Below, in pieces: positions 18,605 through 23,181 of a stretch of 64,000 nt of DNA. The stretch is from Escherichia coli (GTDB taxonomy: Bacteria > Pseudomonadota > Gammaproteobacteria > Enterobacterales > Enterobacteriaceae), in NCBI RefSeq assembly GCF_041248615.1, contig NZ_CP158426.1. One strand, written 5' to 3'. The notes under the pieces were generated by a model. It made no database searches. It worked only from the letters and a program-made list of their open reading frames with translations, and was not told where the DNA came from. Position numbers and translations under genes: made by a program. Every line of letters begins with the position of its first letter. The stretch's first letter is position 1.

Positions 18605-20062
18605 GTGTCTGAACTGTCTCAATTATCTCCACAGCCGCTGTGGGATATTTTTGCCAAAATCTGTTCTATTCCTCACCCGTCCTATCATGAAGAGCAACTC
18701 GCTGAATACATTGTTGGTTGGGCAAAAGAGAAAGGTTTCCATGTCGAACGCGATCAGGTAGGTAATATCCTGATTCGTAAACCTGCTACCGCAGGTATGG
18801 AAAATCGTAAACCGGTCGTCTTGCAGGCCCACCTCGATATGGTGCCACAGAAAAATAACGACACCGTGCATGACTTCACTAAAGATCCTATCCAGCCTTA
18901 TATTGATGGCGAATGGGTTAAAGCGCGCGGCACCACGCTGGGTGCGGATAACGGCATTGGTATGGCGTCTGCGCTGGCGGTTCTGGCTGACGAAAACGTG
19001 GTTCACGGCCCGCTGGAAGTGCTGCTGACCATGACCGAAGAAGCCGGTATGGATGGTGCTTTTGGCTTACAGAGCAACTGGTTGCAGGCTGATATTCTGA
19101 TTAACACCGACTCCGAAGAGGAAGGTGAAATCTACATGGGTTGCGCGGGGGGTATCGACTTCACCTCCAACCTGCATTTAGATCGTGAAGCGGTTCCAGC
19201 TGGTTTTGAAACCTTCAAGTTAACCTTAAAAGGCCTGAAAGGCGGTCACTCCGGCGGTGAAATCCACGTTGGCCTGGGTAATGCCAACAAACTGCTGGTG
19301 CGCTTCCTGGCGGGTCATGCAGAAGAGCTGGACCTGCGCCTTATCGATTTCAACGGTGGCACACTGCGTAACGCCATCCCGCGTGAAGCCTTTGCGACCA
19401 TTGCTGTCGCAGCTGATAAAGTCGACGCCCTGAAATCTCTGGTGAATACCTATCAGGAGATCCTGAAAAACGAGCTGGCAGAGAAAGAGAAAAATCTGGC
19501 ATTGCTGCTGGACTCTGTTGCGAACGATAAAGCTGCCCTGATTGCGAAATCTCGCGATACCTTTATTCGTCTGCTGAACGCCACCCCGAACGGTGTGATC
19601 CGCAATTCCGATGTGGCAAAAGGTGTGGTGGAAACCTCCCTGAACGTCGGTGTGGTGACCATGACTGACAATAACGTAGAAATTCACTGCCTGATCCGTT
19701 CTCTGATCGACAGCGGTAAAGACTACGTGGTGAGCATGCTGGATTCGCTGGGTAAACTGGCTGGCGCGAAAACCGAAGCGAAAGGCGCATATCCTGGCTG
19801 GCAGCCGGACGCTAATTCTCCGGTGATGCATCTGGTACGTGAAACTTATCAGCGTCTGTTCAACAAGACGCCGAACATCCAGATTATCCACGCGGGCCTG
19901 GAATGTGGTCTGTTCAAAAAACCGTATCCGGAAATGGACATGGTTTCTATCGGGCCAACAATCACCGGTCCACACTCTCCGGATGAGCAAGTTCACATCG
20001 AAAGCGTAGGTCATTACTGGACACTGCTGACTGAGCTGCTGAAAGAAATTCCGGCGAAGTAA
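18605..20062 (+). CDS. pepD: Cytosol non-specific dipeptidase (aminoacyl-histidine dipeptidase), GTG start
   Basis: 485 aa, M20-family peptidase matching PepD. Confidence 0.95.
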   Translation: MSELSQLSPQPLWDIFAKICSIPHPSYHEEQLAEYIVGWAKEKGFHVERDQVGNILIRKPATAGMENRKPVVLQAHLDMVPQKNNDTVHDFTKDPIQPYIDGEWVKARGTTLGADNGIGMASALAVLADENVVHGPLEVLLTMTEEAGMDGAFGLQSNWLQADILINTDSEEEGEIYMGCAGGIDFTSNLHLDREAVPAGFETFKLTLKGLKGGHSGGEIHVGLGNANKLLVRFLAGHAEELDLRLIDFNGGTLRNAIPREAFATIAVAADKVDALKSLVNTYQEILKNELAEKEKNLALLLDSVANDKAALIAKSRDTFIRLLNATPNGVIRNSDVAKGVVETSLNVGVVTMTDNNVEIHCLIRSLIDSGKDYVVSMLDSLGKLAGAKTEAKGAYPGWQPDANSPVMHLVRETYQRLFNKTPNIQIIHAGLECGLFKKPYPEMDMVSIGPTITGPHSPDEQVHIESVGHYWTLLTELLKEIPAK

Positions 20063-20074
20063 TTATTTGATTTG

Positions 20075-20106
20075 CTGCCGGATGGCGTTTAATCGCCTTC
20101 CGGCAG
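20075..20106 (+). terminator. Hairpin terminator after pepD
   Basis: ctgccggatggcg...cgccttccggcag followed by T-rich tract. Confidence 0.5.
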
Positions 20107-20118
20107 TTTCATCCTTCA

Positions 20119-20673
20119 TTATCCTTCGATAAAAGCCATCCCTGTAAATGTCCGTCTCGGGTTGCCACGTTCAATCTGGTGATGGAACATTCGCCGCCGC
20201 GATTTCAGCACCGCGCTATTTTCCTGTTGCTGTTGTTCCAGCGTCCAGGCAATCAGCAATCGCGCCAGCCGCTTGTTAGCATGCCCAGAAACAAGTTTTT
20301 GCGCCCATGATGAGGCCGATACGGACTCGGACAAATCCACTGAATAGTGCCGCACCAACTTTCGCTTAATGCCCATGCGTTATCGCCATCCAGAGAAATC
20401 AGCGCCGAACGCAGCGTGTCAGAGTAGCGGCCCGTTTCTGTTTCCAGCACCGTTACCGCGACGTCTTGCCGGGTAAAAACGACCAACAGAGAATAACGCT
20501 GCGCCAATCGGGTAGCCGCGTCCGGGGTGTAAATCTGGCATCCCTACTACGCGCTGCATGTTGGGTAAATTTGCCGTGGTGTGTAATTGTTGAATCGCTA
20601 AACTCTCGATCCACAGGTCATCAGATGCGATGGTAAATACCGCATCGGATAAGGGACGAATATATTTGCCCAT
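20119..20673 (-). pseudogene. prfH: Decayed prfH (release-factor homologue) and upstream rtcB-like fragment (ykfJ-like)
   Basis: Three overlapping ORFs in different frames; the 5' piece has an RtcB N-terminal motif ([14 protein letters not shown]), the 3' pieces are release-factor-like. Confidence 0.55.
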
Positions 20674-20917
20674 GTATCATTCCATTTATACTCGTCATAC
20701 TTCAAGTTGCATGTACTGCGACTCGAATTATTTAGAGTATATAAATATAAAAATCAGGAAATGGCAGACGAATCCAGGGCAAGAAAAAAGAATTAATCCT
20801 GGAAAGGTCTGCAAAGAGTCATTGATAAAGGATTTGTCATGATTTACCTCCTTGCAGTTTGTGGAATAAGAAAACGCGCACATACCAGGCGGGCGTTATT
20901 TTCATTGCAAGCTGGAT

Positions 20918-21370
20918 TTAATGTTGCGGTTTATATCGCATAGAAAAATTAGTAAACCACGCTCCCCTGCATTCAACGCGCTGCTGCTTAACTGTCTGAA
21001 AACCATAACGTTCAAAAAAGGGTTTTGCGGTTATGCTGGCGTCCACTGTAAGTTCGGATTCAGACTTAATCAAAGGTTTTAACAAAGCGCTGGCAACCCC
21101 ACGGCGGGTGTATTCAGGGTCAACAAATAACATATCGATATAGTGTTCAACGCAGGTAATAAAGCCGACCAGTTTTGCATTAATGACTGCAACCCGCACT
21201 TGTGATTTCGCGAGTTTCTCCTTCCAGCGAGATTCGTCAATCTGCGCCCAGGCGGCAATTTGTTGTGGTGAATAATGCTGACTGGCGGTCATCGTAACCG
21301 CTCTAATGAAAATAGCGCATAGTTGCTGAAAATCGCCAGGCTGATAATCTCTTATTTGTATGTTATTCAT
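20918..21370 (-). CDS. yafP: GNAT-family acetyltransferase YafP
   Basis: 150 aa, last gene of dinB-yafNOP operon. Confidence 0.8.
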   Translation of the reverse strand: MNNIQIRDYQPGDFQQLCAIFIRAVTMTASQHYSPQQIAAWAQIDESRWKEKLAKSQVRVAVINAKLVGFITCVEHYIDMLFVDPEYTRRGVASALLKPLIKSESELTVDASITAKPFFERYGFQTVKQQRVECRGAWFTNFSMRYKPQH

Positions 21371-21379
21371 AATATAAAT

Positions 21380-21778
21380 TCAAAAACGCATGCGAAACGC
21401 TTCTGCCATTTTTCCAATTTTATGCATTTGGTTGTTATCTCGAGCCAGTTTATGAGGTTCAGGCTTCAGAATGGCAATGAGCAACCATGCTTGCTCATCA
21501 AACGCCCCCTGACAATATACCAAATGCGCTTCGTCATTCGTTCTGCTGAATTGGCGCAACTGTGGCGGAAATGGATTATTCACATTTGCCAGATGAATAT
21601 GAGCAACTCGCTCAAATTTGATTAATGGCCAGGTAAACGAGTCGTCGTAGAGTGCATCGCGACCAAATATATCTGGCAAAATACCGTCACGCTTATAGGA
21701 AATAAAATCCGCCGTTAACGCATCAAGTTCCTCTGCTGTAAGTTGCAGGCGAATAAGTTTTGTTTTGAATACCCGCAT
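21380..21778 (-). CDS. yafO: YafO ribosome-dependent mRNA interferase toxin
   Basis: 132 aa, immediately downstream of yafN. Confidence 0.8.
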   Translation of the reverse strand: MRVFKTKLIRLQLTAEELDALTADFISYKRDGILPDIFGRDALYDDSFTWPLIKFERVAHIHLANVNNPFPPQLRQFSRTNDEAHLVYCQGAFDEQAWLLIAILKPEPHKLARDNNQMHKIGKMAEAFRMRF

Positions 21779-21780
21779 CC

Positions 21781-22074
21781 TTATTCCTTAAAGTCATTGA
21801 AATCATCATCCGTCATATCATTAAGATATTGTTCAGCGCGGCGTGTAATTTCCTCTAATCTTGCAGCACTCGGACGGAAGCGCGCCTTTATGGGCTTTTT
21901 CTCCTCTTGTTCAGCAAGCATGTCCATTAACGCTTCGAATGCGCTGGCACTTAAGAGATATCCTGCGGGGCGATTATTAGAAAGAACCGCAACCGGTTGA
22001 TCAATAAAGTATTTAGCTGGGTTTTTACGTAACTCAGTGATATTGACCGATTTTTCAGCGAGAATTCGATGCAT
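21781..22074 (-). CDS. yafN: YafN antitoxin (Phd/YefM-like)
   Basis: 97 aa, acidic C-terminus, upstream of yafO. Confidence 0.8.
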   Translation of the reverse strand: MHRILAEKSVNITELRKNPAKYFIDQPVAVLSNNRPAGYLLSASAFEALMDMLAEQEEKKPIKARFRPSAARLEEITRRAEQYLNDMTDDDFNDFKE

Positions 22075-22125
22075 ACAGTGATCCCCTCATAATAATGCAC
22101 ACCAGAATAGACATAATAGTATACA

Positions 22126-23181
22126 TCATAATCCCAGCACCAGTTGTCTTTCCATTTGAGGGTCAAGCAACGTCACATGCAGCCCCACCAGTCGCACACC
22201 GCGCCCGCCGCGGCGTTCATCCCAGGTTTTACGCGCGGTGGCGATTAGATCAGCTTTATTCAGCCGCGGCCAGACGTGCTCCTGAGTAGTTTGCTGAAAA
22301 TCGTCGAACTTTAATTTCACCCCCTGGCGAGCAATCAGTAAATCAGGTTTTACTTTTGCCAGACGACGTTCAAGTTCCGGATACAGCCGCTCGATAATCG
22401 CTTCACATTCAGACCAGTGATGAATATCTTCCGCCATCGTGCGTTCCACGCCGACAGATTTTCGCAACCGTTCGCTGTTAACGTCGCGCTCGTCAATCCC
22501 CTGACTACGCTCCCACAAAATGCGGCCAAATTTGCCAAAACGTTTGAGCAGAGTCACCAGATCACACTTTTGCACATCACCGCAGGTCCGCAGCCCCATC
22601 GCTTCCAGTTTTGCCGCCGAGACTTTGCCGACGCCGGGGATTTTTGCCAGCGGTAAGGTTTGTAAAAATGTCGGAACTTCTGCCGGCGTAATCACAAACT
22701 GGCCGTTGGGTTTATTCATGTCGGAGGCGATTTTGGCGAGAAACTTTACTGGTGCCACGCCCGCAGACGCCGTCAGTTGCAGCTCGTTGAAGATTGTCTG
22801 GCGGATTTCCTGGGCGATGAGGGTCGCAGAACCGTGGCAATGGACGCTATCAGTGACATCGAGATAGGCTTCATCCAGTGACAACGGTTCAATACGCGAG
22901 GTGTAGCGCGAGAAGATTTCACGGATATGATTTGAGGCTTCTTTGTAGGCGTCAAAGCGCCCCGGAAGCAAGGTGAGATGTGGGCATAATTTGAGCGCCA
23001 TCCCTGTCGGCATAGCGCTACGTACGCCAAATTTACGCGCGGGATAATTGGCGGTGCTGATCACCCCCCGACGTTCGCGGCTGCCGCCAATAGCAATAGG
23101 GATATCGCGCAGGGCGGGATTGTCGCGCATCTCCACTGCGGCGAAAAAGCAGTCCATATCCACATGAATGATTTTACGCAT
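22126..23181 (-). CDS. dinB: DNA polymerase IV (Y-family translesion polymerase)
   Basis: 351 aa, begins [22 protein letters not shown]. Confidence 0.95.

Follow-up and report, generated by a model that had tools for sequence, protein, structure and literature searches.

A doubly deleted remnant of the rtcB2-prfH ribosome-repair operon between pepD and yafP in Escherichia coli

A short minus-strand segment between pepD and yafP, within a 64,000-nucleotide stretch of Escherichia coli DNA (hereafter the window), is best read as the defunct remains of the rtcB2-prfH operon for ribosome rescue and repair, formed by the 1027-bp deletion known from K-12, a later 169-bp deletion and neutral decay, and we put the probability of this reading at about 0.96. 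The assignment rests on homology and orthologous position, on mapped deletions that remove the catalytic motifs, and on population frequencies, all obtained in this work. The sequence-only reading of this DNA had already seen a decayed pair here and taken it as loss of a cassette, which is borne out; the update is that the pair is the long-known ykfJ/prfH pseudogene pair of K-12 (PMC1586002), found in about half of E. coli genomes. The remnant pair was described in 2006 and is in itself nothing new.

Introduction

What the intact pair does, and that its K-12 truncation is non-functional, is known from the literature. Baranov et al. (2006) described a deletion of ~1000 nt in K-12 MG1655, W3110 and O157:H7 relative to CFT073, which cost the upstream gene its C-terminal part and the release-factor homologue RFH its N-terminus (PMC1586002). 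In the work of Tian et al. (2022), peptide release by PrfH was confined to 70S ribosomes with a cut in the decoding centre, RtcB2 religated damaged 30S subunits and not tRNAs, and the RtcB2-PrfH pair reversed damage by ColE3-like toxin in vivo; the same authors called the K-12 rtcB2 and prfH genes "presumably inactive" owing to the deletion (PMC9304027). Furthermore, Maviza et al. (2022) found that ATCC 25922 is protected from colicin E3 by its intact operon, and that knockouts of the truncated genes in BW25113 left colicin E3 sensitivity unchanged (PMC9223846). The sequence-only reading had therefore named the right role in calling such pairs a ribosome/RNA-repair module, but its wording that they are "thought to" act in this way is outdated, as the 2022 experiments showed that the pair rescues and repairs ribosomes damaged by colicin E3 or CdiA-CT (PMC9304027, PMC9223846).

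Results

Identity and position of the remnants

The gene order in the window is frsA, gpt and pepD (18605-20062, plus strand), then the remnant, then yafP (20918-21370, minus strand), yafO, yafN, dinB and lafU. The minus strand of the pepD-yafP gap contains three overlapping ORFs, at 20419-20673, 20253-20507 and 20119-20376. These had been described as three overlapping frames; the three ORFs do overlap, but they occupy only two reading frames, with the RtcB piece and the PrfH C-terminal piece in the same one, and PrfH sequence is found in only two of the three. The outer limits first assigned to the pair proved exact, as on the minus strand the rtcB2 ATG starts at 20673 and the prfH stop codon ends at 20119. 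The features of the segment are as follows.

20674-20917, minus strand: former yafP-rtcB2 intergenic region, conserved with intact loci, with a short ERIC at about 20683-20751
20474-20673, minus strand: rtcB2 remnant (ykfJ in K-12), with its start codon at 20671-20673 and codons 1-66 plus 2 nt; the ORF then runs out of frame to a stop at 20419-20421
20473-20474: junction of the 1027-bp deletion, joining rtcB2 codon 67 to prfH codon 31
20285-20473, minus strand: prfH remnant part A, codons 31 (partial) to 93, from the TIGR03072 match, tblastn and alignment
20284-20285: junction of the 169-bp deletion, with prfH codons 94-150 gone and GCAT at both ends
20119-20284, minus strand: prfH remnant part B, codons 150 (partial) to 204 plus the stop codon at 20119-20121, out of frame with part A

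Comparison with NCBIfam resolved each ORF. The ORF at 20419-20673 (minus) matched positions 1-69 of 379 in NF007153, "RNA ligase RtcB family protein" (E = 1.7e-30), as well as TIGR03073, release_rtcB (E = 1.8e-28), and the RtcB remnant scored 106 bits against a full-length cut-off of 407 bits. Release_prfH (TIGR03072) was matched at positions 31-94 of 200 by the ORF at 20253-20507 (minus, E = 2.1e-24) and at positions 143-200 by the ORF at 20119-20376 (minus, E = 1.7e-15), each piece scoring under the 166.65-bit cut-off, as expected of fragments. The sole Pfam match was to RtcB positions 1-35 and lay below threshold (E = 4.3e-5, 23.4 bits versus a cut-off of 27); a Pfam search of the prfH pieces gave no match, and these fragments were resolved with NCBIfam instead.

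Searching the intact proteins against the whole 64 kb with tblastn recovered RtcB2 residues 1-69 (97% identity), PrfH residues 26-95 (89%) and PrfH residues 149-204 (95%), and revealed no second copy of rtcB2 or prfH in the window. Protein identity of the remnants to the intact proteins is 88-97%. What survives, in shifted frames, amounts to only 69 of the 379 residues of RtcB2 and about 120 of the 204 of PrfH, and the window copy shows amino-acid replacements. The concern that the fragments might not correspond to rtcB and prfH was addressed by alignment, in which they do match rtcB2 and prfH; the proposed identity as an rtcB-like N-terminus plus a release-factor homologue is likewise upheld by NCBIfam, by tblastn and by the orthologous position of intact operons.

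The RtcB2 remnant lies directly upstream of the prfH remnant, at the place of the intact operon between yafP and pepD. In strain 503829 that operon comprises rtcB2 (379 aa) and prfH (204 aa) with a 4-nt overlap, again between yafP and pepD, and Nissle 1917 has the same intact arrangement at the orthologous position. The flanking genes are the same in the window and around the intact RtcB2-PrfH operons of ATCC 25922, CFT073, Nissle 1917 and 503829, which marks the locus as orthologous. In contrast to these operons, the window lacks all catalytic motifs and no function is expected of it. The MG1655 annotation places the pseudogenes ykfJ (b0235) and prfH (b0236) between yafP and pepD, and PGAP labels the 100% identical sequence of strain 7/2 as two pseudogenes, a partial RtcB and a frameshifted, partial prfH. 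The PGAP entry for the strain 7/2 RtcB remnant (3405-3611 of the extracted locus) also carries the note "compromised ability for drug-inducible mexXY expression", which looks like a carry-over from a Pseudomonas homologue and is irrelevant to the E. coli pseudogene.

A second presence/absence polymorphism adjoins that of rtcB2-prfH. Between yafP and dinB, the window (region 20918-23181), K-12 and strain 7/2 carry the yafN-yafO toxin-antitoxin pair; it is absent from 503829 (3953-5457 of the extracted locus), where yafP abuts dinB directly with overlapping coordinates.

Two deletions account for the open reading frames

The 855-bp pepD-yafP interval of the window was aligned with the 2052-bp interval of the intact E. 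coli strain 503829 and with the corresponding intervals of K-12, O157:H7, FT130 and MS 115-1. Relative to the intact locus, just two large differences fall within the genes, deletions of 1027 bp and 169 bp, each of 3n+1 length. As these two deletions account for the ORF pattern, no small point frameshifts are needed. Alignment with intact loci had been suggested beforehand as a means of mapping frameshifts and deletions; the damage indeed maps to deletions, and small frameshifts need not be invoked. The earlier proposal that both partners are degraded and the cassette lost agrees with the two deletions and the missing catalytic motifs.

The 1027-bp deletion (junction 20474/20473) begins with the third base of rtcB2 codon 67, ends with the first base of prfH codon 31 and joins the genes out of frame. 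In intact alleles its left border, (T/C)CCGGCA, and its right border, CCCGACA, form an imperfect 7-nt direct repeat, and in the alignment the position of the junction is identical in the window, K-12, O157:H7, FT130 and MS 115-1. Lost with the segment are the DIGCG metal-binding motif of RtcB2 (residues 74-78), His294, the overlap of the rtcB2 stop and prfH start, and PrfH residues 1-30. The catalytic core of RtcB2, consisting of the D-x-G-C-G motif and the His294 nucleophile, is consequently missing from the window, all catalytic residues having been deleted.

The 169-bp deletion (junction 20285/20284) removes prfH codons 94-150, shifts the frame by one base and is bordered by GCAT on each side. 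The GGQ motif of PrfH (residues 120-122 of the intact protein, with Q122) lies inside the deleted segment, and no GGQ is encoded in the window copy. An uninterrupted PrfH ORF of about 200 codons with its own start is also absent, since codons 1-30 and 94-150 are deleted and the two remaining parts lie in different frames. Replacement of single residues within these lost motifs is known to be damaging, as H294N in RtcB2 and Q122E in PrfH are the inactivating mutants of Tian et al. (PMC9304027). With neither catalytic centre left, the locus is predicted from its sequence to be inert in ribosome repair.

All 169-bp-deleted alleles that we inspected (5 loci read) also have the 1027-bp deletion, and this nesting suggests that the 169-bp deletion is the later of the two. 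The K-12 ykfJ/prfH pair resembles the window in its chromosomal position, 1027-bp deletion and CCCGGCA junction, with about 98% nucleotide identity over shared columns. Unlike the window, K-12 does not have the 169-bp deletion, and GGQ is still encoded in its prfH remnant.

Allele frequencies among complete genomes

Allele frequencies were determined in 5426 complete E. coli genomes. The full-length locus, called when at least 80% of the 2052-bp intact query was found in one place, is present in 2710 genomes (about 50%). The 1027-bp deletion, called when at least 80% of the window's 855 bp was found in one place, is present in about 2672 (about 49%). Its junction is polymorphic exactly within the 7-nt microhomology, and counts with three variant-specific 36-bp queries sum to 2677, matching the 2672.

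CCCGGCA (K-12, window): 1213 genomes
CCCGACA (O157:H7, FT130): 1127 genomes
TCCGGCA (MS 115-1): 337 genomes

A 60-bp query across the same junction detected 1516 genomes; since megablast requires an exact 28-mer, which SNPs close to the junction can disrupt, this number is too low and was set aside.

The 169-bp segment was detected in 4756 genomes, while about 660 have the locus but not this segment. Queried as an exact 60-bp sequence, the junction of the 169-bp deletion in its window form occurs in 314 complete genomes, and four of four TCCGGCA-type loci read (MS 115-1, 504239, cq9 and UK_Dog_Liverpool) have the 169-bp deletion. Together these two groups (314 + 337 = 651) roughly account for the 660, giving a double-deleted share of about 12%. 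Strain 7/2, a complete genome, matches the window over the whole 855-bp pepD-yafP interval with 100% identity, and an IS1 element is inserted at the locus in at least one strain (H81).

One 169-bp deletion on two haplotypes

The identical 169-bp deletion is thus found on two haplotypes, the window type (CCCGGCA, short ERIC, about 314 genomes) and the MS 115-1 type (TCCGGCA, full ERIC, about 337 genomes). The latter shares both deletions with the window, with identical end points, but differs from it in having T rather than C at the 1027-bp junction, a full ERIC upstream and a different flanking SNP haplotype. In the 222 bp 3' of the 169-bp deletion, MS 115-1 shows 0 differences from FT130, a strain that does not have this deletion, versus 7 sites that differ from the window. 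The two 169-bp-deleted haplotypes are therefore not mutual closest relatives in their flanks.

We found no repeats flanking the 169-bp deletion longer than the 4-nt GCAT, and no secondary structure that would favour its recurrence, as the DNA of the segment folds no more stably than shuffled sequence (z = -0.01). Spread by homologous recombination seems more likely than recurrence as the origin of the 169-bp deletion on two backgrounds. The three variants of the 1027-bp junction would fit recurrent deletion, matching different crossover points or parental alleles in the imperfect repeat; one original deletion, later modified by point mutation or through recombination with intact alleles, would explain them equally well.

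Upstream region and candidate RNA signals

The gap between yafP and rtcB2 contains an ERIC (enterobacterial repetitive intergenic consensus) element, with the window copy at 20683-20751 (minus strand), upstream of the rtcB2 start. A 72-bp central ERIC segment is present in K-12 (about 2840-2970 of the extracted locus), O157:H7 and MS 115-1, and matches the ERIC2 and ERIC1R primers with one mismatch each. This core is missing from the window, in contrast to K-12, and also from FT130 and the intact 503829, so that the outer arms alone are left in all three (short ERIC); in Nissle 1917 a further 55 bp are gone. The 72-bp K-12 segment had been considered as a "BoxC" repeat, an assignment rejected in favour of ERIC on comparison with the ERIC primer sequences.

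An Rfam scan of 19900-21100 yielded no family at gathering score. The partial match to isrH at 20685-20751 (minus strand; 26.8 bits versus a gathering score of 45) is probably due to the ERIC repeat, and matches to sR28 and STnc350 were dismissed on E-values of 0.28-0.39. Scans of the region for promoters and terminators gave site numbers no higher than those of shuffled sequence.

Visual inspection of 20075-20107, between the stop codons of the convergent genes pepD and prfH, showed an imperfect palindrome (GCTGCCGGATGGCG...CGCCTTCCGGCAG then TTT). This may be a terminator that both genes share, or a REP-like hairpin; a simple terminator scan did not flag it.

Discussion

The proposed history begins from strains with the intact operon. 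In these, PrfH, a release-factor homologue without domain 1, acts on 70S ribosomes in which colicin E3 or CdiA-CT has cleaved the 16S rRNA between A1493 and G1494, entering at the A site. The GGQ of PrfH releases the peptide, and RtcB2 next religates the 16S rRNA in the freed 30S subunit. In the lineage of the window, a 1027-bp deletion between the imperfect 7-nt direct repeats, presumably the same event as in K-12 ykfJ/prfH, truncated both genes, and a lineage-specific 169-bp deletion, probably the later of the two, took prfH codons 94-150 including GGQ. We infer that the decay of the locus has been neutral, and no observation speaks against this reading as a whole.

Two other explanations for the broken frames deserve consideration. 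As with any frameshifted gene in raw sequence, sequencing or assembly errors in a K-12-like or intact locus could in principle produce such a pattern, although nothing specific speaks for them here. Population data already refute this explanation, to which we give practically no weight: the 855-bp interval recurs without a difference in the complete strain 7/2 genome, the 169-bp junction is seen in 314 independent complete genomes and in about 337 more on the second haplotype, and the lesions are large deletions, not homopolymer-length errors.

Very improbable in our view is a new job for the remnants, as an 84-aa RtcB2 N-terminal peptide or a regulatory RNA, which would explain why the truncated allele persists in half of the species. 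The allele is indeed very common (the roughly 2672 of 5426 genomes above), the rtcB2 start codon and upstream region are conserved, and the 84-codon ORF from the native ATG is still open. A residual transcript, or the 84-aa peptide itself, would be compatible with the sequence. Yet BW25113 lacking the truncated genes behaved no differently in colicin E3 assays (PMC9223846), and Rfam offers no family at gathering score in the region. Decay of the remnant also continues, as seen in the 169-bp deletion of about 650 genomes, the IS1 insertion in H81 and the amino-acid replacements of the window copy. Moreover, high frequency is equally to be expected of an old neutral deletion in a clonal, recombining species.

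The reading of the segment as a dead operon remnant leaves room for a more speculative, and in our judgement unlikely, view of how such alleles became common. The near 50:50 split between functional and null alleles, the three variants of the 1027-bp junction and the 169-bp deletion on two haplotypes together raise the idea that loss of rtcB2-prfH was not one neutral accident. Null alleles might instead arise by recurrent microhomology-mediated deletion at fixed hotspots, or spread by recombination under selection, as a balanced polymorphism. If this were true, a possible source of selection would be the cost of the repair pair where colicin E3-type toxins are absent.

For the strain from which the window derives, the loss of both catalytic centres leads to the prediction that, like K-12, it would be unable to repair 16S rRNA cut by colicin E3 or CdiA-CT via the RtcB2-PrfH pathway. 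Across the species, the allele counts given here may serve as a marker and as background for studies of ribotoxin susceptibility.
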